In this document: positions 1,079 through 20,695 of the stretch, piece by piece
Position numbering within the stretch: the stretch's first letter is position 1
Layout of the letters: every line of letters starts with the position of its first letter
Origin: Planctomycetota bacterium
Lineage (GTDB): Bacteria; Planctomycetota; GCA-002687715; DRQF01
Direction: 5' to 3'
Assembly: GCA_036479435.1 (NCBI GenBank)
Contig: JAZGFI010000075.1
Span: 1 to 22,862 of the forward strand
DNA length: 22,862 bases
The notes under the pieces: model-generated
Seen by the model: only the letters and a program-made list of their open reading frames with translations
Database searches by the model: none
Told to the model about the DNA's origin: nothing
Program-made: the position numbers and the translations under genes

Positions 1079-2614
1079 TTGGCCACGAGTTTGACGATCC
1101 AGATTCCTTCACCTTTGCTCCGTTACTCGGAGGGTCAAACGAGTCTGGACGTTGAGGCCCAAACCGTGGGGGCGGCCTTGGATGCGCTGTTTGCGGTCTT
1201 TCCGGGCTTGGCGTCGCGCGTTCTCGACAAAAACGGCAACATCCCACCCTACTTGATCCTGTTACACGCTGGTGAGGTGCTGGCGCGAGACGACTTTCGC
1301 GACCATGTCGTCCAAGCGGGTGATTTACTAGACATCATTCCCGCGGTCGAGGGCGGGAACAGCTCCGGCGACGATGTCCGCATGCGTGGATTCAGAAAAC
1401 GAGCCACCGTCGCCGAGGCCCGCAGCGAAGCGATGGCCGGGCTCAGCTGGCGCAGCGAAACATTGGCTATTGCCGAGGCGGCGGGGCGCGTCCTCGCCTC
1501 GGACGTCGCTTCGCAAATCGACGTGCCAACTTTTGACCGTTCCGCCATGGATGGCTTCGCCCTTTGCGGCGAGGACAGTTTTGGCGCCACGCTCTACGAC
1601 CCGGTTCGTCTCGAACTGGTTGGCGAAGTCATGCCGGGGATGGAGAAACTTCCAAGCCTCGCTCGCGGCCAAGCGCTGCGCATCATGACCGGCGCGCCGA
1701 TCCCTCCCGGCGCCGATGCGGTCTTGATGGCGGAGGACGCCAAAGAAGAACAAGGGGCCGTGTTGGTCCAAGCACCCGTGACACCGGGCAAGAACGTCGG
1801 GCGCCGCGGCGAAGACATCTGTGCGGGCGAAACTTTGCTCAGTGCGGGTCGAAAGTTGCGGCCTCAAGATGTCGGGCTCTTGGCGAGTATCGGAGCGGCC
1901 GTAGTTGAGGTGATTGCGAAACCTCGCGCCGCGATTTTGGTGACGGGCAATGAGCTATTGCCCCCAGGTGAAACGCCGGGGCCTGGCCGAGTGGTCGATA
2001 GCAACACGCCGATGTTGCGGGCATTGATGGAGGCCGATGGCGCTGAAGTCGTCTTGGAGTTTCGCCTTGCTGACGAGCCGGACATCATCGCCCGGGCACT
2101 GGTGCGGAGTGAAGTCGAGATTTTGGTCGCGGCGGGGGGCTCATCGGTCGGTCGCGAAGATTGGCTGCCTGTGTTAACCCGTGAGTACGGCGAGCTGCCG
2201 ATCCACGGCATTGCCATGCGGCCTTCTTCTCCGACCGGTATTGGTCGGGTCGATGACAAAAAGGTGTTCTTGTTGCCGGGAAATCCCGTTTCTTGCCTCG
2301 CCGCCTACGACTTTTTCGCTGGGCCGGCGATTCGCTTTCTCAGTGGCCTTGAACCGGGTTGGCCTTACCCTCGCGAGACCCGTCGCTTGGCGAGGCGGGT
2401 TAGTTCGCAAGTGGGGCGCCTCGACTACCTTCGCGTCAAAATCGAAACCGATGGCCGCGTGGTGCCGCTGGCCTTGTCCGGCGCGGCGATCTTGTCGTCG
2501 ACGACTCGCGCCGACGCCTTCGCAATCATCCCCGCTGATTCCGAAGGCTTCGATGAAGGCAAAGAGATCGAGGTCTTTTTCTACGACCGGCGCCACGTGG
2601 ACGGTCGAGCGTGA
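1079..2614 (+). CDS. moeA: MoaD/ThiS ubiquitin-like sulfur carrier fused N-terminally to gephyrin-like molybdopterin molybdo/tungsto-transferase MoeA
   Basis: GAGGTG RBS before TTG. aa1-93 are beta-grasp-like and end GDLLDIIPAVEGG. MoeA motifs follow: DRSAMDGFA, IMTGAPIPPGADAVLMAED, TGNEL, GGSSVG, LPGNPVS. Confidence 0.93.
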   Translation: MATSLTIQIPSPLLRYSEGQTSLDVEAQTVGAALDALFAVFPGLASRVLDKNGNIPPYLILLHAGEVLARDDFRDHVVQAGDLLDIIPAVEGGNSSGDDVRMRGFRKRATVAEARSEAMAGLSWRSETLAIAEAAGRVLASDVASQIDVPTFDRSAMDGFALCGEDSFGATLYDPVRLELVGEVMPGMEKLPSLARGQALRIMTGAPIPPGADAVLMAEDAKEEQGAVLVQAPVTPGKNVGRRGEDICAGETLLSAGRKLRPQDVGLLASIGAAVVEVIAKPRAAILVTGNELLPPGETPGPGRVVDSNTPMLRALMEADGAEVVLEFRLADEPDIIARALVRSEVEILVAAGGSSVGREDWLPVLTREYGELPIHGIAMRPSSPTGIGRVDDKKVFLLPGNPVSCLAAYDFFAGPAIRFLSGLEPGWPYPRETRRLARRVSSQVGRLDYLRVKIETDGRVVPLALSGAAILSSTTRADAFAIIPADSEGFDEGKEIEVFFYDRRHVDGRA

Positions 2615-4596
2615 AACAGCGTCAGTTCTTAGACGTCGTCACGGACGAAGAGGCGCAGCGCCGCATCGCCGAAGTCTTCCAAGGCATGGTGCCCTGCGGT
2701 GAGATGCTGCCCCTCAACGAGTGCTTGGGCCGCGTCTTATTTGAGGACGTAAGCGCCGCGGTCGATGTCCCGGGTTTTGATCGCGCGGACATGGACGGAT
2801 TTGCCCTGCATGCGGTCGACACTTTCGGAGCCGAAGAACTCGCACCGAAGCGCTTGAAGGTTTCGCGCCATCAGATCGCCGCCGGCTCGGCGGATCTGCC
2901 CGCCGACTTCTCCTTAGAACCGGGTGCAGCGATTTCAATCGCAACTGGTGGCACTTTGCCCCGCGGGGCGAACGCCGTCTTGATGATTGAAGACTCCGCG
3001 CCGGTGGTTGACGGTGACAATAGCGGTGACGAGATCGACGTATTTCATCCGGTCGCCCCCGGAGCGAATCTTACGGGGGCCGGCACTGACGTCGGTCGCG
3101 GCGAGATGATCTTGCGTGCGGGCCAAATCCTTGGGTCTCGTGAGACAGCCCTAGCGGCAGCGGTTGGTGCGCATGAGCTGTGTGCTTTTGCCGCGCCTAA
3201 AGTTGCGATCATCTCGACGGGCGATGAATTGCGCCGCCCCGGAGAAGACTTGGGGCCCGGTGAAATCTACGACTCCAATGGCCGCATCCTCGCCGACGCG
3301 GTACGCGAGATGGGCGGCGAAGCCTGTGAACTCGGCATCGTGCCCGATGACGAGAAGAAGCTCAGCGCTTGTCTAAGGGAAGCCCTCCGAGACTCAGACT
3401 TAATCTTGATGTCGGGTGGGACGTCGAAAGGCGCTGGCGACCTCAACTATCGTGTCGTGCGTGCCTTGGCCCAAGAGCTGCCAAACTCGCGAGGCATTGT
3501 CGTTCACGGCGTCGCCTTAAAGCCCGGCAAGCCTCTTTGTGTCGCCGAAGTCGCCGGCCGTCCGCTGGTGATCTTGCCGGGTTTCCCAACCTCGGCGATC
3601 TTCACTTTCCATGAGTTCGTCTCCTCGCACCTTCGATTTGCCGCTGGCCGCCGCGAGCATTCGGCGGAGTACGTCGAAGCCTACGCGCCGCTGCGCCTGC
3701 CCAGCGCGAAAGGGCGAACGGAGTACATGCTGGTCGATCTCGTGCCCGGCGATCAAGGCTTGGCGGCCTATCCTTTGGGCCGCGGTTCCGGCAGTGTCAG
3801 CACTTTTTCGGCGGCCGATGGTTTCATTCGCATTGATCGTCACACTGAGTTCGTAGCGGAAGGCGAGCGCCTTTTGGTGCGACCCTTGGGCGATCAAGTC
3901 CGGCGACCCGACCTCGTCGCCATCGGTAGTCATTGCCTCGGATTGGACTATTTGTTGAGCGTCTTAAGTCGGCGTGGTTACAGCGTGAAGGCCATCAACG
4001 TTGGGTCTCAGGGCGGACTGAACGCGCTCGCGCGCGGCGAAGGCGACCTCGCAGGAACCCACCTTCTGGATGCGACAACCGGGGAGTACAACCGCTCTTT
4101 TCTTCCCGAGAACACCGAGATCCTAGGAGGATGGCGGCGGCGACAAGGTTTGGTATTTCGCCGCGGCGACGCTCGATTTGAAAGTCTCGCCGCCGACCTA
4201 AGCCGACTCGCCGACCTGGTGCGCGAACCCGGCGTGGTGATGGTGAACCGCAATCCGGGCAGTGGCACTCGCGTGTTGATTGATCGTTTTCTTAGCGCGG
4301 GCGCTGAAACTAAAAGCCCGCCCGAGGGCTTTCACGCCCTAGCCCGCAGCCACCACGCCGTGGCTGCCGCCGTGGTCCAAGGTCGGGCAGACTGGGGCAT
4401 AACGCTCCAATCCTTGGCTCAAGAGCAAGGCCTCGAATTCGTCTTTGTGCAAGACGAGATCTTCGAACTCGCCTTTCCCGCGTCGAGGGCCCAGCGCCCA
4501 GCTATCCTGGCGCTGCGCAAGATCTTGGCCGAATCCGAAGTTCAAGCAAAACTAAAAAACCTGCTATACGGAGTCAGACTAAATTCTCCCGCTTAA
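2611..4596 (+). CDS. moeA: MoeA fused to C-terminal PBP (periplasmic-binding-protein-like) domain
   Basis: GTGA overlap with the upstream gene. MoeA motifs DRADMDGFA, STGDEL, SGGTSKG, HGVALKPGKP, LPGFPTSA. PBP motifs GSHCLGLD, VGSQGGL, GTHLLD, NRNPGSGTR. Paired moeA genes are typical of tungsten-AOR loci. Confidence 0.93.
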   Translation: MKQRQFLDVVTDEEAQRRIAEVFQGMVPCGEMLPLNECLGRVLFEDVSAAVDVPGFDRADMDGFALHAVDTFGAEELAPKRLKVSRHQIAAGSADLPADFSLEPGAAISIATGGTLPRGANAVLMIEDSAPVVDGDNSGDEIDVFHPVAPGANLTGAGTDVGRGEMILRAGQILGSRETALAAAVGAHELCAFAAPKVAIISTGDELRRPGEDLGPGEIYDSNGRILADAVREMGGEACELGIVPDDEKKLSACLREALRDSDLILMSGGTSKGAGDLNYRVVRALAQELPNSRGIVVHGVALKPGKPLCVAEVAGRPLVILPGFPTSAIFTFHEFVSSHLRFAAGRREHSAEYVEAYAPLRLPSAKGRTEYMLVDLVPGDQGLAAYPLGRGSGSVSTFSAADGFIRIDRHTEFVAEGERLLVRPLGDQVRRPDLVAIGSHCLGLDYLLSVLSRRGYSVKAINVGSQGGLNALARGEGDLAGTHLLDATTGEYNRSFLPENTEILGGWRRRQGLVFRRGDARFESLAADLSRLADLVREPGVVMVNRNPGSGTRVLIDRFLSAGAETKSPPEGFHALARSHHAVAAAVVQGRADWGITLQSLAQEQGLEFVFVQDEIFELAFPASRAQRPAILALRKILAESEVQAKLKNLLYGVRLNSPA

Positions 4597-4673: not shown

Positions 4674-5579
4674 CTATCTTCTCCCGCCGTCCAGTTTTCC
4701 GTCTGACAACCCGGCGGCATTGCGGACCAATCGCGCGATCGCCGACAGGTCTTCGTCGCCAAATCCTGCATCGATCAGTTCGTCTTCGCTGGTCGCCATT
4801 TGACTCGCGACGGGAAGTTCCACGCCGGTGTCGGCGGCGGCATCTAACGCGATCCTTAGATCTTTTCGGTGGAGGCTGACTCGAAATCCCAAGGGGTATT
4901 GGTTGTCGATCATGTTGCCGGCGCGTTGCTGGAGTACCCAAGAGGCAGCGGCGCCGCCGCCGATCGCCTCTACGACGCGCTCGGGATCAACTCCTAGCTT
5001 GTGGGCCAAGACCATGCCTTCCGCGACGGCTTGGTAGGTGCCTGAGATGACCACCTGGTTGACGGCCTTGGCGACTTGGCCGGCTCCACTGGGGCCAACG
5101 TGCGTGATCGTTGTGCCGACGGCTTCGAGTACGGGGCGGGCGCGTTCAAAGTCGGTTTCCGAGCCACCGCACATAATGGCGAGCGTGGCGTTCTGAGCAC
5201 CTTCTGAACCGCCAGAGACGGGGGCATCAACGAAGGCGATCTGCCGTTTGGCGCAAGTCGCGGCCAATCTTCGAGTCGCGTCGGGGGCCACCGTCGAGCA
5301 ATCGATGATCAGCCCACCGTCGGCGATCCCCGCTAACAGCCCGCGTTCAGCATCGAGCACGACTTCTTCTAAGTCGGGCGTGTCCGAGACGCAGATCAAA
5401 ACGGCATCGCAGATCTTCGCCAGCTCTTTTGGCGACGCGGCGCGTTTCGCGCCGACAGCGGCCAAGGCCTCTTCTCGCTCGCGGGTTCGGTTGTGAACCA
5501 CCAGGTCAAATCCGGACTTCAACAAGTTGTGGGCCATGGGCGTTCCCATGGTCCCAAGTCCTAAGACGCCAATTTTCAC
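4674..5579 (-). CDS. NAD(P)-dependent beta-hydroxyacid dehydrogenase (3-hydroxyisobutyrate DH / tartronate- or succinic-semialdehyde reductase family)
   Basis: GVLGLGTMG Rossmann motif, DAPVSGG, catalytic-Lys region GAGQVAKAVNQ, and F-x6-KDL. Confidence 0.93.
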   Translation of the reverse strand: MKIGVLGLGTMGTPMAHNLLKSGFDLVVHNRTREREEALAAVGAKRAASPKELAKICDAVLICVSDTPDLEEVVLDAERGLLAGIADGGLIIDCSTVAPDATRRLAATCAKRQIAFVDAPVSGGSEGAQNATLAIMCGGSETDFERARPVLEAVGTTITHVGPSGAGQVAKAVNQVVISGTYQAVAEGMVLAHKLGVDPERVVEAIGGGAAASWVLQQRAGNMIDNQYPLGFRVSLHRKDLRIALDAAADTGVELPVASQMATSEDELIDAGFGDEDLSAIARLVRNAAGLSDGKLDGGRR

Positions 5580-6504: not shown

Positions 6505-9102
6505 TCAGTGTTTCTTCAGGACTTGTCTTCGGCGCTTGAAGTCGGCGGCCTCAATCTTGTGCACCACATCGCTAATCCCGTCCTTGGCCTCGACCTTGAT
6601 CTCGAAGGAATCGATCGGAGTCACCCGCCTGGAGTCCGAAGACATCGAGTGAGAAGTTTGCTGCAGGTAACTAAAGCGCAAGAGGTAGCGACCGGCTTCT
6701 GGGAATGATAACTCGGCGGCCCCTTTCTCGTCGAGGACGGCCCTCACTTCGGCTGGTTTCGATTCTGCGCCGCCGAGGAAGGCCGAAAGCGTGATGAAGA
6801 GCGGAGCCTGGGGCCAGTGCTTCGGACCCTTGATCTGAAGGTGGACGCGACAAGGCGGGGCGAGCTTGATGGTCCCCGAGCGCAGCGGACCCGGTTTTCG
6901 GTAGGCCCCTCGCTCATCTGCAGAAACGAAGAGGTCGCTAAGGGGAGAAGCTGCGACCAAGGTCATGACGCCCTTGGCATCGGAGTCCGGAAAGTACCGG
7001 CTCTTTCCCATCTCGGTCGCCTGTACTGTTGCGCCTTCGACAGCGCGGCCTGTGGAATCCACAATCTTGAGCCGGGCCGTCCAGATCCTTGCGCCCAGGG
7101 CTACACGCTGGAGCCGCGAGTCCGTCGATTCTCCCTTGGCGTCAATCTCAATGTCGCTGATCTCAAGAATCGGGGGACTTTTCGATCCCCGATGCTGAAT
7201 GCGAATCGTCGCCAGCCCTGGCCGCAAGCCCGACCAGGCCACGCGGTGTGGGTTCGTCCATTGCCCTCTTTTTTCGGAGTGTGGACCGGCGTCAAAAGGG
7301 TCCCAGGCGGCAGGCACTCCCAGCATCAAGATTTCGATCGCCTTCGGGCCGGGGACTCTTCCGACGAAAGTCATGGCGATCCGGCCTCCCCGCGGCATCG
7401 TCAATCGCAATCCCTCAGTTCCCGGCGCAAGCTCTTCGCTGACGAGCGCGGGGAATCCGGGACGTTCAAAAAAAAGGCGAAAGGGCTCATCGACTACTTG
7501 GCTCAAGAGGCGAAACCTACCCTGTTCGTCAACGCGGGCGGCGATGTCGCTTAGGTCTTCGACGCTTCTTGCTTGACCGAGCGCGACGCGAAGCGTGACG
7601 TTCTGAAGGGCTTGACCCGCATCGTCGACGACCAGTCCTGCCGCTAAGACCGGAAGCTCCTGAAGGACCAAGTCACCGAGGTCGACGCGCGCCGGGAAGG
7701 TGTCGTGCTGCGGCAAAAGGGCCTCCGTACCCCCGCGATGCCCACCGGCGAACCCGGTTTCGATACGCAACGTGGACTGCGCCGCCCGAAGGAGACTGTC
7801 CTCGCAGCCGATTCGGATGAATCCAACAGCATCCGTGCTGCGTATCCCAAGGTCGTGATGGACATCGTGGTTTTTGCCGCCGAGGCCTCGCAAGAGCAAA
7901 TCAGTATGGGCCATGGGCTCGCCCTTGGTATTGAGCACCCGGGCCGTCAGTGTCGATAGCGCTGCACCCAGTTCAAGCTGGTGACGGACCTTGCCTCCAC
8001 TATTCACGGGGCCGTCCAAAACGACGCTGTGGTGTTCACAGCTCTTGTCGGTGGGTCCAACGCATACCACAAATCTCAAGCCCAACGGCAGGTCATCAAA
8101 GCGCACTTCGCGTTGGGGGGTAATGCGCATCCAGGTTGGCCCGTACTCGCTGTTATCTGCAGCAAGAGCGCGCAAAGTAAGAACGACGGTTTTGTCCTTG
8201 GTGTTTTCGGGACCAACCCAACTCAAGATCATGGATGCTCCGCGCGGAAGGCGATGCACGGGAACGGCGTCTTCTGGACGAAGTGGTCGCGCGGTGATCG
8301 GCTGCGGACTGTAGCCCGGGAGCACAATCGAAAATCGTGCATGTGATGACGCGTAGCCGTAGTCCGGTTCGAAGAACCACGCCACTCCATCCTGGTCAGT
8401 TCGCGAGACCATGCGGTCGTAGAATACTCGGGGGTTTAGGTTCGTGGATTGCAGCGTGACGTCCAAACCCTCGCGAGGCTTGCCATCGGCACCTGCAATC
8501 TTGAGCGCATACTGCCGCGACTTGAGCAGTTCGTACTCGACAACCTGTCCAGCATCGTCGTTGAAATAGACCTGTTGCGGGGGCAAATACCCTTCATGCG
8601 CTGTCGCCGCGACTTGGCCTTTGCGCCAAAACCGCGGCAAGGGGCAGTAGCCACGTTCATCCGTCTCGAAGACATCGCCGTACTGAGTGGCCAGGATCAG
8701 AAAGTGGTCGGCCGTGGTCGCTTGATGGTCAAGCGCTTCGCGCGCGGCGCCCGCGTAGGGCAAAAAAGCCACGACCGCTCCGGCGACCCCGCGCTGCCCG
8801 GTGGGATCGAGAATCCTCAATATCGGCCCCCCACGATCCTGAACGACATCAATCCAATCGTCGGGGAACAGCCGCGCGCTGCGGGCGGACTCGAGTTGTC
8901 TGGCACTGAGAGTTCGAGTGCGCCGATGGCCTCGCTCCCCGCTGCGGTCTCGGGGCTTTTCGAATTCATGTTGGTTTTTCGTCTTGGGCGCTAGCCGGTT
9001 TGACGATTCGCTTTCATCATCCGCAGTGATCCACCCAAATAGCCCCAGGCCCCAAAAGGCCAAGCCAATGATGAGCGCGGTGATGAAATGGCGTGCCTGC
9101 AT
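6505..9102 (-). CDS. Membrane-anchored exported protein with repeated carboxypeptidase-regulatory-like beta-sandwich domains; function unknown
   Basis: 865-aa ORF with an N-terminal hydrophobic segment. Recurring G-x-V-x-D-x-x-G-x-P/A...T-D-x-x-G patterns (ARVLNTKGEPM, AGLVVDDAGQAL, KIVDSTGRAVEGATV, TDQDG, TDERG). Confidence 0.75.
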   Translation of the reverse strand: MQARHFITALIIGLAFWGLGLFGWITADDESESSNRLAPKTKNQHEFEKPRDRSGERGHRRTRTLSARQLESARSARLFPDDWIDVVQDRGGPILRILDPTGQRGVAGAVVAFLPYAGAAREALDHQATTADHFLILATQYGDVFETDERGYCPLPRFWRKGQVAATAHEGYLPPQQVYFNDDAGQVVEYELLKSRQYALKIAGADGKPREGLDVTLQSTNLNPRVFYDRMVSRTDQDGVAWFFEPDYGYASSHARFSIVLPGYSPQPITARPLRPEDAVPVHRLPRGASMILSWVGPENTKDKTVVLTLRALAADNSEYGPTWMRITPQREVRFDDLPLGLRFVVCVGPTDKSCEHHSVVLDGPVNSGGKVRHQLELGAALSTLTARVLNTKGEPMAHTDLLLRGLGGKNHDVHHDLGIRSTDAVGFIRIGCEDSLLRAAQSTLRIETGFAGGHRGGTEALLPQHDTFPARVDLGDLVLQELPVLAAGLVVDDAGQALQNVTLRVALGQARSVEDLSDIAARVDEQGRFRLLSQVVDEPFRLFFERPGFPALVSEELAPGTEGLRLTMPRGGRIAMTFVGRVPGPKAIEILMLGVPAAWDPFDAGPHSEKRGQWTNPHRVAWSGLRPGLATIRIQHRGSKSPPILEISDIEIDAKGESTDSRLQRVALGARIWTARLKIVDSTGRAVEGATVQATEMGKSRYFPDSDAKGVMTLVAASPLSDLFVSADERGAYRKPGPLRSGTIKLAPPCRVHLQIKGPKHWPQAPLFITLSAFLGGAESKPAEVRAVLDEKGAAELSFPEAGRYLLRFSYLQQTSHSMSSDSRRVTPIDSFEIKVEAKDGISDVVHKIEAADFKRRRQVLKKH

Positions 9103-9213: not shown

Positions 9214-10323
9214 CTATCCGATGGCGGCGATCATGACCTCGAGTCGGGCTTTGATCGGGAGTCCCGCGGTCTTTTCCAGCAGGGCTTCGAGCTTCTTTTT
9301 CTGCGCCGCCAGTTTCTTCTTGTTCATACGGGCGCAAACATTGCAACCAGCTTGCTTGTGATCGTGCCCTAGGCGCTTGCAGTTCTTGCAGGGCTTCATC
9401 TTGTCGAGATGTTTTTGCACCTTGTCGAGCTTCTTTTCGATCTCGAGGGCGGCTTTGAAGTCATCGGAGCCCTTGAGTTCGACGAGCTTTTCGGTGACGG
9501 CAGGTCCCAGAGTGGTCCTGGATAGTTCCTTTTCGAGTGACTTCAGCTCTCGTTGGGCTCGCGACGGGTGTTGGCCCATGGCGTTGTCAATGTCCGCCAG
9601 TCGGCGGTCACGCCAGGACTCGACGGCATTCAACAGACGGTCTAAATCGCTGCGCAGCTCATCCGAAGTCCTTTCGTCGGCGAGTTTCTTCTCGATGGTC
9701 TTAAGGGTCGCGTTGAGTTTCTTGGGGCTGGCGATTTGGGCCGCCAGCTTGGGCGCGGCCTCAAACTTTTCTTTCCCGAGGTCGATCGAACGTGCGCGAT
9801 CGAGGAGCTTGTCGACCCATTCGATGAACTTGAGCCCGTCACCCTCGTGGTAGTCACCACACATGTGGTGGTGAGCGATCTTGCCGCGGTGGTCAAAAAC
9901 TATGTAGTAGGGAACGTAGCCGCTGCCCTTCACTTTTGGGTGACGGCCTTGTGATGTCACCGTGAAATTCGGGGTTTTGGCGGTAACTCCTTTGGACTTG
10001 ATGTAGGAAACGACTTCGGACTTGGGGTTGCTCTGGCAATGGGATGCCAGCAAATGAAAAGGACGTCCTTCGAGTCTCTTGGCCAAACTGACCAAGTGCG
10101 GGGTGATCGCGTGGCAACCCACTCAGCTTCCCCAGATCTCCATCAACACGACCTTGCCGACCAAGTCGCGCTTGTCGATTTGTTTGCCGTACCAATACTC
10201 ACCCAAGCTGATGTCGTTGATTGACTCGCCAATCGCGGGATCGTTCTGAGCCCAGGTCGATGGCAGGGTTGACCCAAGGGTCAGCGCGCTCGCCAATAAA
10301 AGTGCGAGAGGGGAAAAACGCAT
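9214..10323 (-). CDS. Putative selenoprotein (369 aa with UGA read as Sec): signal peptide, TlpA/thioredoxin-fold domain with UxxC, coiled coil, CxxC..CxxC tail
   Basis: ORFs 10123..10323 and 9214..10122 abut in frame across one TGA (10123-10125), giving DLVGKVVLMEIWGS-U-VGCHAITPHLVSLAKRLEGRPFHLL. This matches the TlpA pattern GKVVLxxFW..CxxC...PHL. GAGG RBS lies before ATG 10323. Confidence 0.82.
10078..10096 (-). promoter_or_regulatory. Candidate bacterial SECIS hairpin for UGA 10123-10125
   Basis: CTTGGTCA-GTT-TGGCCAAG, an 8-bp stem with one G-U pair. The loop starts with GU, 34 nt after the UGA. Confidence 0.4.
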
Positions 10324-12398: not shown

Positions 12399-13287
12399 GG
12401 ATCGCTCATCAGGGTGCGGCGTATTTGGCGGTGATCGCCAAGAGTAAGTCTTTAGTCACCTTGCCGGTAAGGCGCCCGAGTTCAGTGCCAGGAGGGGCGA
12501 GGACGAGGGCGGTTGGACAGGGAAGTGCGATGAGGGTTCCCTGGGCTAAGGCGACGTCAAAGTCTGGGCCAAATCGAAACTGCTCAAAGAAATCAGACCC
12601 TTTGGCCTGTTCCGCGCCAATGTTGACTCGAGCCAAGTTCGCGGAAGCCTCGGCATCCGCGAAGAGGGCCTCGATTCCCGTGACGTTTTCCATCGGATCA
12701 TGGGCGTAGCTTGCGAGCGCTCGCATGTCGACGATGACCAGCTTGCCCGCCTGAAAAGCCTCGAGGACTTTCGCGTGGGCCGGGCCGATAAAGGCCGTGT
12801 CCAACTCGTCGAGATCAAAGTCACCATCTTCATCGGCGAGAATCGTCTTCGTGATGGCGCCACTCGGCGCGATGACCATCACCACCGGCATGGGCATGCG
12901 CGCGAGATCCAACTTGCGGATTACAGGGGCTTGTCCCGACAAAGTCAGATCCACGGCCTGAAACTCGGCCTTGTGTTTGGGGTCGGCGGCCACTTCGCGC
13001 AAGGATTCCAACAAGTCGGCATCGAGGGTCTCGGCGTCTTGGTGGAAAAGTCCGACGAAGAACTTTTTCTTCGCGTGGGTCGCCTGCATGAGCTCCATGC
13101 CGTTCTCTCGATCTTCACTGCCCTTAGCCACTGGAGTCTCGACCGCGGAGGCGGTCGGCGGGGCTTTGGCAACTTTTTGTGGCGATGATGGGCTGCACCC
13201 CGCCAGGGTCGCGAAGACCAAAGTCGCAAAGATGATGCCGAGCGCTGGCGCTTGCTGCCAGCGTCTTGAAGGGGCTGCGTCGTTCAT
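12385..13287 (-). CDS. Lipoprotein with two thioredoxin-like folds, partner of the ABC exporter; probable C-terminal tandem Sec-Sec (300 aa with readthrough, 292 aa if stopped at 12409)
   Basis: Lipobox LAGC and two similar halves (VVMVIAPSGAI / ALVLAPPGTEL). The 3' end reads GCC GCA CCC TGA TGA GCG ATC CCG GAC TGT AAA TAG = AAP-U-U-AIPDCK-stop. The CDS itself is secure; the readthrough is inferred. Confidence 0.75.
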
Positions 13288-13371: not shown

Positions 13372-13950
13372 TTAGAGCGAAAGGCTCGGAACGTCCCAGG
13401 TCTCGGGCAGGCAAATGGGAGAGGCGATGACGACACTAATATCGGGCAAGGCGTCAAGAGCGGCCCTAAGGGCCTCGGCGCGGGCCTCATCGAGGTCGGC
13501 CAGGGGCTCGTCCAAGAGCAGTAGTTCCGGTCGCAACACCAATGCCCTAGCCAGGGCGACGCGCCGGATCTCGCCGCCGCTCAGGGTGCGCGACGAGCGC
13601 CTCAACAGATCTTTCAGCTCAAAGCGTTCGACGGCTTCGTCAATTCGCGGCTGACTCTCATTCGCTCGGATGCCGTGAGCCTTCAAACCGTAGCTGAGAT
13701 TGCTGCGCACATCGCCGCGAAACAAAAAGGGGCTTTGGTGAACAAAAACGCGCGCCTTTTGGTGCGCTTCAATCTTGACTTGACCTTGGGAGGGCACATC
13801 GAGTCCCGCCATCACGCGAAGCAGGGTCGACTTCCCCGAGCCGTTTTGGCCACGGATCAAAAAACGCTGGCCCCGCGCCAAAACAAAAGAGTCGAGTTTG
13901 AGAATCTCGTGGCCGTTGCGAGTCAGGCGAAGGCCGGTAATCTCAATCAT
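13372..13950 (-). CDS. tupC: Tungstate ABC transporter ATP-binding subunit
   Basis: True start is probably ATG 13950 (MIEITG, ATGA overlap with tupB) rather than 14157. Motifs GQNGSGKS, VHQSPFLF, LSGGE, LLLDEP. Follows tupA and tupB. Confidence 0.88.
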   Translation of the reverse strand: MIEITGLRLTRNGHEILKLDSFVLARGQRFLIRGQNGSGKSTLLRVMAGLDVPSQGQVKIEAHQKARVFVHQSPFLFRGDVRSNLSYGLKAHGIRANESQPRIDEAVERFELKDLLRRSSRTLSGGEIRRVALARALVLRPELLLLDEPLADLDEARAEALRAALDALPDISVVIASPICLPETWDVPSLSL

Positions 13951-14648
13951 GATTTCGCCTCCCGGTCGCGCTCGAAGGAAAGCAAAACCAAGATGCTGGT
14001 GACGCCGAGGGAAAGCAGCAGCAACAAAAAGCCCATGGCTAGTCCGCGGCTGTACTCGCCGCGGCTTGACTCTAGGACAATCGAACCCGCCAAGGTACGC
14101 GTACGGCCCGCGATGTTGCCGCCGACCATCACCGCCACGCCGAGTTCCGTCATGCAACGCGCCAGCGCGGTCAAGACGCCGAGCAGAATGCCCGTGCGGG
14201 CTTCCGACAAAAGTGTGAGGGCGTGGCGCAACTTCCCCGCCCCCAAAGTGCGCGCGGTTTCTGAGGCGCGGGGATCCAAAGCGGACACCGCCCCTTGGGT
14301 CAGCGAAAAAGTGATCGGAAGGGCGAGCAAGAACTCGCCCAAGATGATCGCCCAGGGGGTGTAGATCAGCTCCAACCCACCCAAGACTCCGCCGCGAGCA
14401 AAAAAGGAATAGCCGAGGATTCCGATAAAGGCGGTGGGGAAGGCCATGCCGGTCCGACCGAGCAAGATCAAAAGGCGGCGACCGACGAAGCGTTTGGTGG
14501 CGACAAATGTCCCCAGCGGAATACCGACCATCGCGGCCAAAAAGACCGCCGACCCGGAAACGAATAGGGTGCGGCCCGCGGCGTTCATGACCACGGGATC
14601 TTGATCGATGAGAAGCCGGAAAGCCTCGCGAATGCCGTCTGCGAACAT
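13947..14648 (-). CDS. tupB: Tungstate ABC transporter permease
   Basis: Hydrophobic protein with ETARTLGA EAA-loop and the TupB-type ELGVAVMVGGNIAGRTRTL motif. Confidence 0.92.
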   Translation of the reverse strand: MFADGIREAFRLLIDQDPVVMNAAGRTLFVSGSAVFLAAMVGIPLGTFVATKRFVGRRLLILLGRTGMAFPTAFIGILGYSFFARGGVLGGLELIYTPWAIILGEFLLALPITFSLTQGAVSALDPRASETARTLGAGKLRHALTLLSEARTGILLGVLTALARCMTELGVAVMVGGNIAGRTRTLAGSIVLESSRGEYSRGLAMGFLLLLLSLGVTSILVLLSFERDREAKS

Positions 14649-15497
14649 CTATCCGGCCTTCGGCGTCAAGGTCTTAAAGACGCGCACGCCGCCGACTTCG
14701 TAGTTGCGGATGATGTCTTGAGCCTCGGGGCCGATAAGGAACTCGGCAAATTTCTCCGCGAGCTTCACTCCTGCGGCGGGGCGACGATCCGGATTCACGC
14801 GAATGACCGAATAGGGATTGATCAGATTGGCACCGCCGGACACCAACTCAACGAGATCGAGGCGGTTTGCCACCCGGGCGAAGGTGCCGCGGTCGATGAG
14901 CAAGTAACACCTCAGTTCGTGCGCCATTTCCGCGGTGGCCCCCATGCCTCGGCCCGATTCGATGTACTCCGACCAAGGGCTGTAACCATCGACGAGCTTC
15001 CAAAGCTGCGCTTCGCGTTTGTGGGTACCACTGTCGTCGCCACGGCTGATAAAACGCGCACCTTGTTGGCAAATGCGGCGCAGGGCGTCCGCGACCTTCA
15101 TGCCTTTGACGCCCGCCGGGTCGTTCTTCGGACCGGCGATGAGGAAATCGCTTTGCATGACGGCCCGGCGCCCAAGGCCATGCCCGGCCGCCACAAAGGC
15201 TTCTTCGGCTTCGCGAGAGTGAGCGAAAACCGCATCAACGTCGCCGTTAGCGCCGAGCTTCAAGGCAGCCCCGGTGCCCACCGCGAGGACGATCACTTCG
15301 CAGGACTCACTTTTTTCAAAGAGGGGGATGAGTTGGTCGGCGATCCCGGAGTCACGCATCGAGGTGGTGATGGCGATGCGCAGGATCTTGTCATCGGCCC
15401 CGTCCTGGCAGCCCCAAAGGCAGCTCAGAACGAGGCCGACAGCGGCAGCAAAGCCTAAATGCCGGATTTCAAAAGCATCTCGTCGAAGGACTTGCAT
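14649..15497 (-). CDS. tupA: Tungstate-binding lipoprotein of ABC transporter
   Basis: Lipobox LWGC; ITTSMRDSG (TTTS-like), AVGTGAAL, FISRGDDSGTHKRE, GRGMGAT, DRGT, NPYSVI. The start overlaps the aor 3' end by 43 nt and is uncertain. Confidence 0.92.
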   Translation of the reverse strand: MQVLRRDAFEIRHLGFAAAVGLVLSCLWGCQDGADDKILRIAITTSMRDSGIADQLIPLFEKSESCEVIVLAVGTGAALKLGANGDVDAVFAHSREAEEAFVAAGHGLGRRAVMQSDFLIAGPKNDPAGVKGMKVADALRRICQQGARFISRGDDSGTHKREAQLWKLVDGYSPWSEYIESGRGMGATAEMAHELRCYLLIDRGTFARVANRLDLVELVSGGANLINPYSVIRVNPDRRPAAGVKLAEKFAEFLIGPEAQDIIRNYEVGGVRVFKTLTPKAG

Positions 15498-18019
15498 ACC
15501 CGTGAGTGCACCTCTTCGAAGAACTCGACCGTGTTGAAGTGTTCAAGATCAACTTTGTCGTACTTGCGGTGAACTTCAAGGGGCATCCGGTAGTCCTCGG
15601 GGCTAAAGCCCTGAGTCCTTTCCAGTTTAAGACCGCGGAGGAAGCAGCGCTTGACCGTCTCGGTGAGCTGCTCTTCGCTGATCTCAAGGCCGGTCATGAG
15701 CTGGATGGCTTCCGCCATCTTCTCGTTGGGCAGGGCCGCAAACTTGCAGATGCCAATGACGTCGTCGCGCATGATCGAACAGCCGCGCTCAGTGATGGCT
15801 TCAACCCAGTAGTCGGCGCCCGCTTCTTTTTCGAAAACGTAGAGCAAATAGGTCTTCATCGACATGTGCCCGCCGGCCAAGGCCCAGGGATAGCCGGGGT
15901 TGAACTGCGGTAAGTAGGCGGGGAACTCGACGCCCTTGCAGTGCATGGCGTAACCGGTTTCACCGAGCGCTTCCGAAAGACGTTTCACGCCCTGGCCGAG
16001 CAACGGGAGTTTGCCCTTGGCCATTTCGGTGATAGCCCGTTGCGCGCCTTCGTAGTTGCCGTACTCGATGTAGTCCGGGATCAAAGACGGCTCGCCCGCC
16101 TCTTTTTTGCGCTTGTTGTACTCCATGGCGTAAGAGATCGTGACGCCGCAAGAGATGGAATCCATGCCGTAGTCGTCGACCATGTCCACCAAGTGAACGG
16201 CTTGATGGATGTCGAAAATCCCGATGTTCGAAGACATCAAGTTCAAGGGCTCAAAATCGAGCTTCGCGTGGAACTTGCCGGGCTTTACTTTGCCCTTGAC
16301 CTCTGTGCGGTCGTAGACGTTTTTGTGACAGGAAATGCCGCAGGCGTAGCAAGCTTCGTCTTTGACCATCAACTCGCCCGCCGCTTCGACGTTGGCGCGG
16401 TACATCGGCACAGAAACATCGGTGCCGGTGGGGTTGAAGTTGTTTTCAGGCATCGCGTGCAGCGGGTTCAAGGCCGTCATGTTGGCCCAAGTGCCGCCGC
16501 CGCCATCGCCTTTTTTTGCGTCGCGAAAGCGCTGGCTTCCGGGCCCGCGCGCGACTTCCATGTTGATCTCTTTGAGGCCCGCGACTTTGACGCCCGGCTT
16601 GGGGTCTTTCATGTCCGCCACGATGGCGAGCAAGTTTTTGGAACCCATCAAACCGCCCATGCCCCCGCGCCCCGCAAAGCGCGACTTCATGTCGCCACTT
16701 TTGAGCTGGTTGAGGGTAGAGAGGCCGATCGCCGCGAAGCGGACTTCTTCGTAGTTCTCGCCGGCGGTGCCAATCGCCGCGAAGTGAGCATCGGGATACT
16801 GGGTGTAGAGGTGTTGGATCTTTTGATTGATCGTCATTCCCTGCAAGTGATGCGCGGGCTTAAACTGGAACGTCGGTTGGCCGTTGGCTTCGTCGTGAGT
16901 GATGTGCAAGTAGACCGGCATGATGGCCTGGCCCGTGAAAATAACTTCCTCCACCCCGAGGTGCCGAAGCTTGGTGCCGAATTTGCCACTGCCGGTCGAC
17001 CACATCGCCGAGGGCTTGTCACTGAGGGAGGCCTTCAGCGGTGAGTAACCGTGGAAGTAGGTGCGTAGGCCGGTCATGAACTGAGTGCCCGACAAAATGC
17101 CGAGGTTCATGATGAGCGGCGCGGCTTTGTCGTAGGGATCTTCAACCTCGTAGTCTTCGAGAATCTTGAATCCGCGGCCGATGCCGCCCAAGACATCTTC
17201 GTAGTCGGCACACTCGACCGTGTCTCGCTTGACGAAATAGGTGCTGAGGTCGATCCGGTACTGTTTGATGCTGAATTCGCGGGGTGACTTGAGATCAGCC
17301 GCCGCGACCGGAGCGGGAGCGGATTTCTTGGCCGGTGCCGCTTCGGATTTCTTAGCAGGTGTGGCGGCGGGCTTTTTCGCCGGAGCTGCCCCCGGCTTAG
17401 CGGCCGGAGTCGTCTCCGGCTTGGCGGCTGGTTTCGCGGTCGCTTTGTTCGGGGCGGGCTTTTTAGGCTCCGGCTTTTTGACTTCAGGTGTTTTGTCGCT
17501 CGGCTTCTCGACGGCCGCCACCGGCTTTGCCGCCGTCGGGGTCTTTGACGTGCGCTTCGTGGTTTTTCGGTCCTCGGAGTCGCCTGTCGCCGTGGCTGGT
17601 TTCTCAGCGGGCTTCTTCTCCGGGTCCGGGGCCTTTTGCGAAATGATCGTCTTCGGCGGTTCTTCGACCGCTGTTGGCATTCGCTCGGCGCTGGTTTTGG
17701 CGACTTTCTTTTTGGCCACCTTCACGACGACTTCGATTTTGGTTCGACCCATCTTGATGACCAAACCGTTCTTCAATGGATGACGATTGCCTTTCCCGAG
17801 AACCGGGCCTCCGACGATGACCGTCTTGTTGGAGCTGCCGACGTCTTCGATTTCAAGGCCACCGCTTCCCTCCAAAATCACGGCGTGGCATCCGGAAACA
17901 TTCTGGTCATTAACGCAGAGTTGGTTGCTGGGGTCGCGCCCGATGGTGGTGCCAGCTTTGATGGCAACGTTGCGGGGGGCTTGATCGGGTTCGTGGAGGC
18001 GAAAGGTGTATTCAGACAT
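15455..18019 (-). CDS. aor: Tungsten-containing aldehyde:ferredoxin oxidoreductase family enzyme with N-terminal FHA domain and Lys/Pro/Ala-rich linker
   Basis: FHA: TIGRDPSNQL..VSGCHA..IEDVGSSNKT. AOR: AGRGGMGGLMGSKNLLAI, PENNF, CYACGISC, DDYGMDSIS (DxxGxD), KGVEFPAY, GGH, DDVIGICKF (fourth Fe-S Cys). Confidence 0.92.
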   Translation of the reverse strand: MSEYTFRLHEPDQAPRNVAIKAGTTIGRDPSNQLCVNDQNVSGCHAVILEGSGGLEIEDVGSSNKTVIVGGPVLGKGNRHPLKNGLVIKMGRTKIEVVVKVAKKKVAKTSAERMPTAVEEPPKTIISQKAPDPEKKPAEKPATATGDSEDRKTTKRTSKTPTAAKPVAAVEKPSDKTPEVKKPEPKKPAPNKATAKPAAKPETTPAAKPGAAPAKKPAATPAKKSEAAPAKKSAPAPVAAADLKSPREFSIKQYRIDLSTYFVKRDTVECADYEDVLGGIGRGFKILEDYEVEDPYDKAAPLIMNLGILSGTQFMTGLRTYFHGYSPLKASLSDKPSAMWSTGSGKFGTKLRHLGVEEVIFTGQAIMPVYLHITHDEANGQPTFQFKPAHHLQGMTINQKIQHLYTQYPDAHFAAIGTAGENYEEVRFAAIGLSTLNQLKSGDMKSRFAGRGGMGGLMGSKNLLAIVADMKDPKPGVKVAGLKEINMEVARGPGSQRFRDAKKGDGGGGTWANMTALNPLHAMPENNFNPTGTDVSVPMYRANVEAAGELMVKDEACYACGISCHKNVYDRTEVKGKVKPGKFHAKLDFEPLNLMSSNIGIFDIHQAVHLVDMVDDYGMDSISCGVTISYAMEYNKRKKEAGEPSLIPDYIEYGNYEGAQRAITEMAKGKLPLLGQGVKRLSEALGETGYAMHCKGVEFPAYLPQFNPGYPWALAGGHMSMKTYLLYVFEKEAGADYWVEAITERGCSIMRDDVIGICKFAALPNEKMAEAIQLMTGLEISEEQLTETVKRCFLRGLKLERTQGFSPEDYRMPLEVHRKYDKVDLEHFNTVEFFEEVHSRVCKSFDEMLLKSGI
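17290..17720 (-). repeat. Low-complexity PAKK/PAAK-type peptide repeats in the FHA-AOR linker (approximate bounds)
   Basis: KPAAKPETTPAAKPGAAPAKKPAATPAKKSEAAPAKKSAPAP. Confidence 0.85.
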
Positions 18020-18072
18020 CAAAAGTCTCTATCGCTCGGGGTGCGTGCCGGGTTGGATCTGAGGTTGAGGCG

Positions 18073-18114: not shown

Positions 18115-19764
18115 TCAAAGAGTGCAGGTAATGGAGCCGAGGCGAGCCGTCAGCTTCATGTTTTCGCTGTAGTCGATCGGGATCGAGATGATCGCCGGCC
18201 CCTCTTGCTGGAAGGCCTCTTCGAGGGCGGGCAGCAGGTCTTTGGATTTGGTGACATGCTTGCCCCAAGCGCCAAAGCTCTCCGCCAACTTCACGAAGTC
18301 GGGGTTGGTGAAAGCCAGGTCGGAGTGCTTGCCAAAGCTCGCCTGCTGCTTCCATTTGATCAGGCCGTACTCGCAGTCTTCCCAGATCAGCTGGACGATG
18401 TTGAGTTTGCGGCGCACCGCGGTCTCAAGGTCTTGGATGTTCATCATCGTACCGGCATCACCACCCACAGCGAGGATGCGGCGATCGGGAAAGACCAACT
18501 TCGCGCCCATTGCGCCTGGGAAGGCGAAACCCATCGTGCAAAAGCCGTTCGAGATCAGGCAAGTGTTGGGCTCGTCGCACTGGTAGTAGCGGCCGATCCA
18601 CATCTTGTGGGCTCCGACGTCGCTCAAAATGATGTCGTTTGGTCCCAAGACCTGACGGCAATCCCAGAGTGCTTTTTGGGGAGTGATCAAGCCGTCGGTG
18701 TCGGCGTCGGCATGTTCGGCGAAGTCGGCGAGCATTTCCTTGCGCAACTTGGCGTGCACGTTGATGTCGAACAGGGGCTTGTCGGGCATACCCTTGTTGA
18801 GTTCGTAGATCGAATCCGCGATGTCGGCGACCAATTCGACATCCGGGTGATAGAGGCTCTCCACTTCGGACTCTTCGAAGTCAATGTGGATGATCTTCTT
18901 GTCGCGCCCGGTGTTCCAAAACTGCGGGTGGTACTCGACGAGGTCGTAGCCAATGGCAATAACCAAGTCGGCTTTTTCCATTTCGCAAGAAACAAGGTCG
19001 CGAGCCTGTAGGCCCATCGTGAATAAACAGTGCTTGTCATCTCGCGCAATCGCGCCCTTGCCCATGAAGGTGCTGACGACACCGATACCAGATTTCTCGG
19101 CGAAGATCCGAAGCTGCTTTGTGGAGCGCTTGCGAATCGAGCCGTTGCCCGCGAGGATCAAAGGGTGCTTGGCATTTTTGATCAGCTCGAGCGCTTGCTT
19201 GACCGCTTTGTGGTCGGCGCCGGGGCGGCGAACCTTGCGCGGCTCCATCGGGACCAAGTCATCCTTCACTTGCGAGTCGGCAAGGTCTTCGGGAAGCTCG
19301 ATGTGCGTGGCCCCCGGTTTTTCGGCGGTAGCGACTTTGAAAGCCTTGCGCACCACTTCCGGAATGTTCTCCGGTTGGCGAACACTGAAGTTCCACTTGG
19401 TGATCGGCCGGAACATCTCAATGCAGTCCATGTTCTGATGCGATTCCTTGTGCAGTCGATGGGTGTCGGCTTGTCCGGTGAGGACGACCATGGGCGCGCG
19501 GTCCATGTTGCCGTCGGCAACGCCCGTCACCAAGTTGGTGGCGCCTGGCCCGAGTGTCGCCAAGCAAACGCCGGGCTTGCCCGTCAAACGCCCGTAGACG
19601 TCGGCCATAAACGCGGCGGCTTGTTCGTGGCGGCAGAGAACGAAGTCGATGTCCGATTCCATCAAGGAAATCATCACATCGGCGTTCTCTTCACCCGGGA
19701 TGCCAAAGATGTACTCGACCCCTTCGGTCTCTAAGCACTTAACGAACAGATCTGATGCCTTCAT
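18115..19764 (-). CDS. ThDP-dependent enzyme, acetolactate-synthase-large-subunit-like; resembles the cyanobacterial 2-oxoglutarate decarboxylase subfamily
   Basis: FGIPGEEN, RHEQAAAFMADVYGRLTGK, TLGPGATN, ESHQ, TFMGKG, SDVGAHKMW, NTCLISNGF, ThDP motif GDAG..., DYSEN. GAGAGG RBS. No ALS small-subunit gene is adjacent. Confidence 0.92.
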   Translation of the reverse strand: MKASDLFVKCLETEGVEYIFGIPGEENADVMISLMESDIDFVLCRHEQAAAFMADVYGRLTGKPGVCLATLGPGATNLVTGVADGNMDRAPMVVLTGQADTHRLHKESHQNMDCIEMFRPITKWNFSVRQPENIPEVVRKAFKVATAEKPGATHIELPEDLADSQVKDDLVPMEPRKVRRPGADHKAVKQALELIKNAKHPLILAGNGSIRKRSTKQLRIFAEKSGIGVVSTFMGKGAIARDDKHCLFTMGLQARDLVSCEMEKADLVIAIGYDLVEYHPQFWNTGRDKKIIHIDFEESEVESLYHPDVELVADIADSIYELNKGMPDKPLFDINVHAKLRKEMLADFAEHADADTDGLITPQKALWDCRQVLGPNDIILSDVGAHKMWIGRYYQCDEPNTCLISNGFCTMGFAFPGAMGAKLVFPDRRILAVGGDAGTMMNIQDLETAVRRKLNIVQLIWEDCEYGLIKWKQQASFGKHSDLAFTNPDFVKLAESFGAWGKHVTKSKDLLPALEEAFQQEGPAIISIPIDYSENMKLTARLGSITCTL

Positions 19765-20591: not shown

Positions 20592-20695
20592 CTCAGGTCC
20601 GTTTGGCGTTGTTTGCAAGTTCGCGTTTTGCCCATCTCTGGGTTGACTGGTTATGCGGACGCACAAGAAGCATACATCCCTGTTGGAGGTTCCAA

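Follow-up and report, generated by a model that had tools for sequence, protein, structure and literature searches.

A MoaD-like domain joined through an internal Gly-Gly to MoeA in a planctomycete tungsten-cofactor gene cluster: a probable precursor for cleavage by a JAMM protease

The fused gene

The window analysed here, a stretch of 22,862 nucleotides from a Planctomycetota genome, carries near one end an open reading frame (1079..2614, + strand; 511 amino acids in a single frame) that combines a MoaD/SAMP1-like domain with MoeA. Translation is assigned to a TTG codon at 1079, with just three codons between it and the preceding stop; another TTG, at 1091, could equally well serve for initiation. 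Residues 1-93 (1079..1357) make up a ubiquitin-like beta-grasp domain of the ThiS/MoaD family, nearest to SAMP1 and CysO, and end in Gly-Gly (residues 92-93, codons GGC GGG at 1352..1357), the predicted cleavage site. A linker predicted to be disordered (NSSGDD, 1358..1375) leads into MoeA proper (1376..2611), a metal insertase of the archaeal type that opens with the conserved VRMRGF. After the Gly-Gly the frame reads N-S-S-G-D-D-V-R-M-R-G-F with no stop and extends for 418 further residues, leaving the gene product without a free C-terminal carboxylate on the last glycine. Since the frame runs on past this point, a free C-terminal glycine on the fused carrier would require proteolysis. The initial annotation of this DNA had described just such a MoaD-like domain, ending in GG at 1352-1357 and running stop-free into MoeA, and its description is borne out by the reading frame and by independent contigs. 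The latter, from four runs of two other studies, cover positions 1079-1700 with a sole substitution (at 1153) and no reported indels. A hidden stop after the Gly-Gly, which the same annotation had named as a possible sequencing error, is excluded because these contigs show no indels at the junction. The fusion of MoaD to MoeA is thus confirmed as real and not an assembly error.

Assignment of the N-terminal domain rests on several converging matches. Pfam ThiS (PF02597) aligns with residues 19-93 (profile positions 13-76 of 76) at 23.7 bits, a narrow margin over the cut-off of 22.5. The NCBIfam SAMP1 model (NF041918) matches residues 20-93 through to the model end (91/91; E 1.4e-11), with a score of 44.7 bits that falls below the equivalog cut-off of 60; judged from these profiles, the domain is SAMP1-like and we do not call it SAMP1. 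The nearest solved relatives in a PDB sequence search are SAMP1 chains (E about 1e-5), and in the matches to SAMP1, CysO and MoaD the Gly-Gly of the fusion aligns with their C-terminal Gly-Gly (in SAMP1 3po0, for example, the two final residues of the chain). The AF2 model is confident for residues 1-89 (pLDDT 87-98 per 10-residue block), with strands (E) and helices (H) in the order E3-8, H11-16, E22-27, H30-48, E59-63, E83-88. Residues 90-98 (VEGGNSSGD) have pLDDT below 50, whereas the beta-grasp domain and MoeA are both confident. Foldseek, run on the whole model, returned MoeA structures as its only matches, so that the beta-grasp assignment derives from the AF2 elements and from sequence.

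The MoeA portion gives Pfam scores far above all cut-offs (MoeA_N, residues 110-272, 156.2 bits; MoCF_biosynth, 285-418, 80.6; MoeA_C, 436-499, 47.2), and the best Foldseek match of the model is Pyrococcus horikoshii MoeA (1uz5, E 2.3e-43). It reaches no NCBIfam MoeA equivalog cut-off, the best scores being 350.3 against 534 for PRK14498 and 284.3 against 440 for PRK10680. In a comparison with E. coli MoeA (1fc5) mapped by hand, D59, T100, D142, E188, D228 and R350 are identical, while K279 is replaced by R, R137 by G and S371 by A. These nine residues are the ones targeted in E. coli MoeA mutant structures, and we take them to be important for catalysis.

The gene cluster

The stop of the fusion gene is overlapped by the GTG start (2611) of a second moeA gene (2611..4596, + strand), whose product is fused to a PBP-like domain and is of the PRK14498 type (669 bits, cut-off 534). 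Next lies a gene on the - strand (4674..5579) for a dehydrogenase resembling HIBADH and 2-hydroxy-3-oxopropionate reductase, which adjoins the MoeA pair in relatives too. Farther along, a TupABC-like tungstate ABC transporter is encoded on the - strand (13372..15497) by genes for a TupA-like binding protein (14649-15497), a permease (13947-14648) and an ATPase (13372-14157); among named families TupA and TupB match best, both below the equivalog cut-offs. Two more - strand genes specify a protein of the aldehyde:ferredoxin-oxidoreductase (AOR) family of tungsten enzymes (15455..18022), carrying an N-terminal FHA domain, and a TPP enzyme of the acetolactate-synthase-large-subunit type (18115..19764; PRK08322, above cut-off). 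Divergent from this TPP-AOR-Tup operon, on the + strand, is a gene for a Prok-JAB (JAMM/MPN+) metalloprotease (PF14464; 19926..20369), the candidate processing enzyme. The fusion gene is therefore part of a conserved tungsten-cofactor cluster comprising the MoeA-PBP, TupABC-like, AOR-family and TPP-enzyme genes, where we infer the specificity for tungsten. Rfam gave no matches anywhere in the window at gathering thresholds and, consequently, the window contains no Moco riboswitch.

The fused carrier is not the only MoaD of the cell. The source genome has a separate moaD-moaE pair, its sole moaE lying next to a standalone moaD on contig C271; the fused carrier is thus an extra, cluster-specific copy, and molybdopterin synthesis does not depend on it. 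Both other ThiS-family genes of this genome end in GG-stop, which leaves the fusion as the only visible linear substrate for the JAB protein. The genome also encodes a single ThiF-family E1, a candidate activator of the carrier. The same holds more widely for the extra MoaD: in G064, G187, G113 and G089, as in the source genome (G000), a standalone ThiS-family match adjoins moaE, and in G403, an Acidimicrobiia genome, moaE has no such neighbour, and a distinct MoaD-like gene with GG-stop at its end lies elsewhere. Among these six genomes we found no case in which the fused MoaD was the sole one.

Conservation of the fusion

The ThiS+MoeA architecture is widespread, being present in 114 of the 120 best homologues (47-98% identity). 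The Gly-Gly is retained in 111 of these 114 fused proteins and is replaced by GD, GD and GN in the other three, which settles favourably the two points, domain architecture and Gly-Gly conservation, on which the initial annotation had suggested that its reading be checked. The linker between the Gly-Gly and the motif [DE][VI]R[MFL]xGF varies in composition and in length (1-22 residues). Proteins with this architecture are abundant in databases, usually annotated plainly as MoeA, and we found no description of a MoaD-MoeA fusion in the searchable literature.

Besides the window, 13 of the 30 loci that a phylum scan returned carry the fusion; the Planctomycetota genomes that share it number at least 13 apart from the source, and four Actinomycetota loci have it too. 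These relatives are not independent, and the signal amounts roughly to two Planctomycetota families and one Actinomycetota group. One genome, G204, has a split form in which MoaD ends ...AEGG-stop and this stop overlaps the start of a MoeA reading MSSGDVRMRGF. In a quick MoeA tree, from which we read no more than how the fused rows group and where the split form nests, the split row adjoins a fused one. In another genome, G210, the MoaD-like domain is joined to a different, uncharacterised domain, and the JAB gene is still kept.

The JAMM protease gene

The JAB protein of the window scores 58.7 bits with PF14464 (cut-off 25). Its JAMM motif, E...HxH...S..D, is intact, with E28, H87, H89, S97 and D100 invariant in 18 sequences (alignment A2). 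The sole NCBIfam match is to desampylase (E 1.3e-9), at 38.1 bits, below the cut-off of 130. Homologues were sought with a profile built from Pfam-located copies; phmmer with the window's protein missed JABs of the f57 type, and a word-based search gave 8 matches. The source genome has one Prok-JAB above cut-off, that in the window.

A JAB gene is present in 13 of the 14 Planctomycetota genomes with the fusion. Since 202 of 401 genomes of the phylum (about 50%) have a Prok-JAB, presence in the genome says little, and we relied on proximity instead. In 8 of the 14 the JAB gene is on the fusion's contig less than 20 kb away (0.1 to 17 kb); in a ninth it adjoins the TPP-AOR operon on another contig. 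At non-fused loci, a JAB was seen in only 2 of 75, within the DNA fetched around each locus. Within the window's order, all eight other genomes of family f1 have the gene, as against 1 of 14 in families f2-f4, where the MoaD-like query matched 2 of the 14 genomes. In G317 and G122, the JAB gene is on a different contig from the fusion, and no gene of the window lies close to it. G064, whose fusion has the Gly-Gly (92% complete, 4 contigs), gave no Prok-JAB above cut-off by Pfam or by profile A2. The four Actinomycetota fused loci have no JAB within 10 kb; these genomes carry one elsewhere, about 110 kb off in G403. Elsewhere among the Planctomycetota, JAB genes are also found with MoaD-like genes that are standalone or fused to an E1, and at loci L056-L059 they lie directly upstream of ThiS-rhodanese-ThiF fusions.

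Discussion

MoaD needs a free C-terminal Gly-Gly for adenylation, thiocarboxylation and sulfur carriage, and a conserved gene that buries these residues consequently predicts an obligatory processing step. The fusion protein is probably a precursor cut after the Gly-Gly, most likely by a JAMM protease, by analogy with MoaD-MoaE fusions. It probably arose when an overlapping moaD-moeA gene pair was fused inside a tungsten-cofactor and aldehyde-oxidoreductase cluster. The 93 N-terminal residues form a putative MoaD/SAMP1-like carrier, whose Gly-Gly is tethered to MoeA of the archaeal type through a linker that is short and flexible. Post-translational cleavage after Gly93, with the Prok-JAB protein encoded at 19926-20369 as the best candidate enzyme, would release a carrier of roughly 10 kDa that ends in ...VEGG and that the single E1 (ThiF/MoeB) of the genome could adenylate and thiocarboxylate. 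The freed MoeA might then cooperate with the neighbouring MoeA-PBP paralogue in adding tungsten to the pterin that serves the AOR-family protein. A cleavable precursor, which would supply sulfur carrier and metal insertase in a 1:1 ratio, had been proposed in the initial annotation. Retention of the Gly-Gly, the predicted disorder around it, the split form with its GG-stop and the clustered JAMM gene all favour this proposal; the G064 genome speaks against it, and the cut itself stays a prediction.

Could the protein function without being cut? The beta-grasp domain might serve MoeA in cis, as a module for docking or regulation (binding E1, MoaE or the AOR apoenzyme, for instance), with the Gly-Gly in a structural or binding role. 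Enzyme-fused, uncleaved beta-grasp domains are common, according to the available sections of PMC1779556; a separate MoaD exists, so that a sulfur-carrier role is not required of the fused domain; 3 of 114 homologues keep the fusion without the Gly-Gly; and G064 has the fusion with no JAB detected. We nonetheless consider this unlikely, given that the Gly-Gly persists in 111 of 114 proteins while flanks and linker vary freely and that its segment is predicted to be disordered, not packed. The split form, moreover, stops precisely at the Gly-Gly, and the JAMM gene remains linked to the cluster across several gene arrangements.

If the precursor is cleaved, another protease might do the cutting, while the cluster's JAB removes the ubiquitin-like protein from protein or small-molecule adducts, in the manner of desampylases and Mec+. 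Such a division of labour would accommodate G064, the distance of the Actinomycetota JABs from the fusion, the persistence of the JAB gene in G210 despite the different fusion partner of its MoaD-like domain, and the JABs found beside standalone or E1-fused MoaD-like genes. We regard it as doubtful, because known JAMM enzymes perform both jobs through one active site (PMC4443979, in the accessible text) and because no second cluster-linked protease gene turned up in the DNA fetched with the window's own genes as queries, a comparison that is blind to kinds of protease absent from the window. A further elaboration of the precursor model strikes us as similarly improbable: a zymogen-like switch in which the joined ubiquitin-like domain and MoeA are inactive until the JAMM protease releases both, perhaps under control linked to the FHA domain of the AOR protein, and in which the carrier may be conjugated to proteins, a bacterial analogue of sampylation and desampylation in archaea.

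MoeA might instead be made mainly alone, from the internal methionine (M102) of DVRMRGF, with the full-length fusion as a minor by-product. M102 is at least 90% conserved, and several database proteins (P0050, P0113, P0085) have their annotated starts at this residue or close by. The methionine is equally conserved, however, in unfused orthologues that begin upstream of it, so that its conservation is not specific to the fusion; moreover, ribosomes translating the MoaD part meet no stop and must continue into MoeA. This makes internal initiation a very improbable account. A frameshift from sequencing or assembly, or a decaying pseudogene, deserves virtually no credence: an error of one base could fuse the frames, given that the two ancestral genes share the four bases ATGA, but the same junction recurs in the contigs of the two further studies and in homologues that share the architecture, and both halves of the AF2 model are confidently folded, so that the sequencing-error reading was rejected.

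The precursor reading, if the cut is confirmed, would extend JAMM-dependent maturation to tungsten-cofactor assembly in bacteria, and the fusion and the JAB would together offer a simple two-gene system for studying deubiquitinase-like recognition of a ubiquitin-like protein in prokaryotes.

Comparison with known systems

Known fusions pair MoaD with its direct partners, MoaE or MoeB. MoeA works two steps further along the pathway and does not partner MoaD directly. The closest parallels are the linear MoaD-MoaE fusions, namely MoaX of Mycobacterium tuberculosis, DR2607 of Deinococcus radiodurans and an engineered SAMP1-MoaE of Haloferax volcanii, which the accessible portions of PMC4443979 and PMC8832034 describe as inactive until a JAMM protease cuts exactly after the Gly-Gly. 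HvJAMM1 cleaves the SAMP1-MoaE fusion precisely at this position, depends on the Gly-Gly to do so and is itself required for activity (PMC4443979, same portion), and DRJAMM cleaves the natural fusion of D. radiodurans (PMC8832034, likewise). As in those proteins, an N-terminal MoaD-type domain here has its Gly-Gly peptide-bonded to a cofactor-biosynthesis enzyme; in our case the partner is MoeA, cleavage is predicted and the cell has a separate moaD-moaE pair.

The SAMP1/HvJAMM1 system of H. volcanii, in which SAMP1 doubles as MoaD, resembles ours in that the N-terminal domain is nearest to SAMP1 and the JAB matches desampylase. Unlike it, both proteins score below the equivalog cut-offs (44.7 against 60 and 38.1 against 130) and the host is a bacterium. 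In analysing the window and the genome we found nothing that points to protein conjugation.

MoaD genes linked to AOR in tungsten-cofactor neighbourhoods were described by Iyer, Burroughs and Aravind in 2006, who noted that MoaD lies next to MoeA "in a few cases" (PMC1779556, accessible sections). Our locus shares with theirs a second MoaD copy that lies away from the Moco operon and is clustered with an AOR-family enzyme and MoeA. The MoaD fusions listed in those sections involve MoaE, ThiG, sulfite reductase and AOR, and not MoeA, and the tungsten neighbourhood there (Table 1, row 3) is not linked to JAB. Fusions of MoaD with MoeB have also been reported (PMC11237513); a Gly-Gly is buried before a pathway enzyme in both cases, the partner being the activating enzyme there and the insertase here. 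The two tandem genes, one for an archaeal-type MoeA and the other for a MoeA-PBP fusion, recall the archaeal MoeA1(PBP)/MoeA2 pairs, whose PBP form has been proposed to be tungsten-related and co-occurs with TupA (PMC11733289). In contrast to those pairs, for which PMC11733289 makes no mention of MoaD, the paralogue lacking the PBP domain has here gained a ubiquitin-like one. What the planctomycete locus adds is a modest twist on a known theme: MoaD joined to MoeA, an enzyme of a later step, in a dedicated tungsten-cofactor cluster that keeps a JAMM protease.

A MoaD-like domain read in frame into MoeA

The open reading frame at 1079-2614 (plus strand, TTG start, 511 aa in the window translation) had been described in the initial annotation as a ubiquitin-like (Ubl) MoaD domain fused to MoeA with a buried Gly-Gly, and both description and coordinates are correct. 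Direct reading of the window gives residues 88-105 as I-P-A-V-E-G-G-N-S-S-G-D-D-V-R-M-R-G, with the Gly-Gly codons at 1352-1357 and the frame running on with no stop. The Pfam ThiS-family domain (residues 19-93; 23.7 bits, cut-off 22.5) aligns up to the last profile position, and the match to the NCBIfam SAMP1 model (E 1.4e-11, below the model cut-off) stops exactly at residue 93; three Pfam MoeA domains span residues 110-499. By sequence, the nearest solved relatives of the N-terminal domain are Haloferax SAMP1 (E about 1e-5), M. tuberculosis CysO and a MoaD. Its alignments to three SAMP1 chains finish on Gly-Gly, the final two residues of SAMP1 chains 3po0 and 4hro. The MoeA part has its nearest match in Pyrococcus horikoshii MoeA; of nine positions targeted in mutant structures of E. 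coli MoeA, mapped by hand on the alignment, six are identical in the window protein and one is a K-to-R change.

The concern that a sequencing error might hide a stop after the Gly-Gly was not borne out. Independent contigs from four public runs, which belong to two studies besides the possible source, span positions 1079-1700; they differ from the window by a single substitution at 1153, with no insertions or deletions. The combination of ThiS and MoeA, flagged for a search in the initial annotation, is common: 114 of the 120 best database matches (47-98% identity to the window protein) have the N-terminal domain. Of the other six, four start no more than three residues from the DVRMRGF motif, P0107 carries a short unrelated extension ahead of it, and P0048 starts within the MoaD domain. 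Searching 401 Planctomycetota genomes with residues 1-127 as query yielded 30 loci, 14 of them full MoeA fusions, window included; the same fusion is found at four Actinomycetota/Acidimicrobiia loci.

Conservation of the Gly-Gly

The gene product would be a precursor, cleaved after Gly93. Loss of the Gly-Gly in fused homologues had been named as a sign against such processing; the domain-final pair is kept in 111 of the 114, being replaced by GD twice and by GN once, and G93 is at least 90% conserved in alignment A1 (the window protein and 46 of the 120 homologues). Between the Gly-Gly and a conserved [DE][VI]R[MFL]xGF motif lie 1 to 22 residues, most commonly 2, and comparison of the 114 proteins found no conserved sequence in this stretch. 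An AlphaFold2 model built on A1 (mean pLDDT 91.6) is confident for both the beta-grasp domain and MoeA, pLDDT falling below 50 at residues 90-98 (VEGGNSSGD). An uncleaved fusion, with the Ubl domain acting in cis, is unlikely in our judgment, the three replaced pairs being set beside the 111 retained ones. The D-V-R-M-R-G-F sequence (1373-1393), found N-terminally in this MoeA subfamily, is conserved with or without a fused Ubl domain and could be a recognition element; residues 101-110 average a pLDDT of 66, so that the motif is modelled with moderate confidence.

Split and fused forms

In genome G204, MoaD and MoeA are encoded separately: the MoaD gene closes with ...AEGG-stop, and the start of MoeA (MSSGDVRMRGF) overlaps this stop by four bases (ATGA). 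The window linker NSSGD is therefore the counterpart of a free MoeA N-terminus; a single-base change would join the two frames of such an overlap. Immediately 3' of the fusion gene, the window has a second MoeA, joined to a PBP-like domain (PRK14498, 669 bits, above cut-off), whose GTG start and the fusion gene's TGA stop overlap in a four-base arrangement of the same kind (GTGA, 2611-2614).

Sorting 92 distinct loci with orthologous MoeA gave 17 fused forms and one split-adjacent form. At ten more, a MoaD-like gene of its own (...GG-stop) lies some 1.8-2.1 kb upstream of MoeA, with an aldehyde:ferredoxin-oxidoreductase (AOR) family gene in between in nine; no MoaD-like gene was seen at the remaining 64. 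In a provisional tree of 89 MoeA rows, made by a quick maximum-likelihood method, a branch with support 99 parts the 65 unfused bacterial rows from the remainder, where all 17 fused rows fall and where the split G204 row adjoins a fused one. At the equivalent place in genome G210 (locus L060, 9185-10765; same family as the window), the MoaD-like domain ends ...VEGG and is fused to a domain of about 175 aa that has no Pfam match and itself ends ...AGG-stop; MoeA was not found in the 20 kb around this locus, and a JAB protease gene is kept beside the thiamine-enzyme (TPP) gene.

The putative tungsten-cofactor cluster

Further window genes encode a TupA/TupB-like ABC transporter, an acetolactate-synthase-type TPP enzyme and a HIBADH-like dehydrogenase; these and the AOR-family gene are found again around the fusion in relatives. 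The AOR-family protein (15455-18022, minus strand, 855 aa) has an N-terminal FHA (phosphothreonine-binding) domain, an unusual pairing, present at full length in relatives (loci L049 and L143), that hints at phosphorylation-based regulation. The two halves of the cluster are separated by a MacB/FtsX-type ABC pair and three minus-strand ORFs, two of about 300 aa with no family match (9214-10122 and 12409-13287) and one of 865 aa with weak CarboxypepD_reg and DUF4198 matches (6505-9102); in genome G272 the halves are contiguous and all of these are absent. A 552-aa ORF adjoining the JAB gene (20603-22261, plus strand) has no Pfam or NCBIfam match; its C-terminal part (...DVDHIVP...N...) resembles what we take to be an HNH-type nuclease motif.

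Other contigs of the genome carry a ThiS gene as well as a canonical moaD-moaE pair, MoaD and ThiS each ending GG-stop, so that the fused carrier is an extra copy specific to this cluster. The genome has one MoaE and one ThiF-type E1. If freed, the carrier may supply this MoaE or serve the tungsten cofactor in some other sulfur transfer.

A JAMM protease gene linked to the fusion

The enzyme responsible for cleavage would most likely be the cluster's JAB, a Prok-JAB (JAMM) metalloprotease (19926-20369) encoded divergently from the TPP-AOR-Tup operon and the sole match of its genome above cut-off. Its JAMM-motif residues (E28, H87, H89, S97, D100) are invariant in 18 aligned JABs, and its only NCBIfam match, below cut-off, is a desampylase model. 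Eight of the 14 fused Planctomycetota genomes have a JAB on the fusion's contig within 20 kb, at about 17 kb in the window, 16 kb in G346, 11 kb in G272, 2 kb in each of G113, G089, G297 and G152, and 0.1 kb (divergent) in G187. In G287 the JAB adjoins TPP-AOR on a contig other than the fusion's; contig breaks leave the distance undefined in G385 and G242, G317 and G122 have a JAB elsewhere in the genome, and none was found in the genome of G064. The JABs of genome families f1 and f57 are just 17-22% identical and lie in differing gene arrangements, which suggests that the linkage was maintained or regained more than once. At non-fused MoeA loci a JAB occurs in 2 of 75 (DNA fetched around each locus), one of the two (L136) being a contig-edge case with the upstream gene missing. 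Within the window's order, all eight other f1 genomes have a JAB, as against one of the 14 from families f2-f4; the split-form genome, 89% complete, has none above cut-off. However, 202 of the 401 Planctomycetota genomes have a JAB, and the Actinomycetota fusions lack one within 10 kb, every one of their genomes having it elsewhere. Cleavage by an enzyme other than the cluster's JAB is the second main rival reading, less likely than the uncleaved fusion.

At loci L056-L059 of other Planctomycetota, ThiS-rhodanese-ThiF or ThiS-ThiF-rhodanese fusions join a Ubl domain to its own E1 and bury the Gly-Gly; a Prok-JAB gene lies directly upstream of each.

Discussion

A literature search of article text found no paper describing the MoaD-MoeA fusion, an architecture already implicit in database domain annotations. 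The portion available of an archaeal-fusion survey lists MoaD-MoaE and MoaD-MoeB, MoaD-MoeA being absent there (PMC11237513). AOR-linked MoaD genes have been described as belonging to tungsten-cofactor neighbourhoods, where MoaD adjoins MoeA "in a few cases" (Iyer et al. 2006, PMC1779556). For the paralogue fused to PBP, a tungsten-related role has been proposed in a 2025 study of MoeA evolution, which contains no mention of MoaD (PMC11733289).

The precursor reading is drawn from characterized MoaD-MoaE systems. HvJAMM1 cleaves a linear SAMP1-MoaE fusion exactly behind the last Gly, a cut that requires the Gly-Gly, the fusion being inactive when the protease is missing (PMC4443979), and DRJAMM of D. 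radiodurans likewise processes a natural MoaD-MoaE fusion (PMC8832034). By analogy with these two proteases, the cluster's JAB probably cuts the MoaD-MoeA precursor after Gly93.
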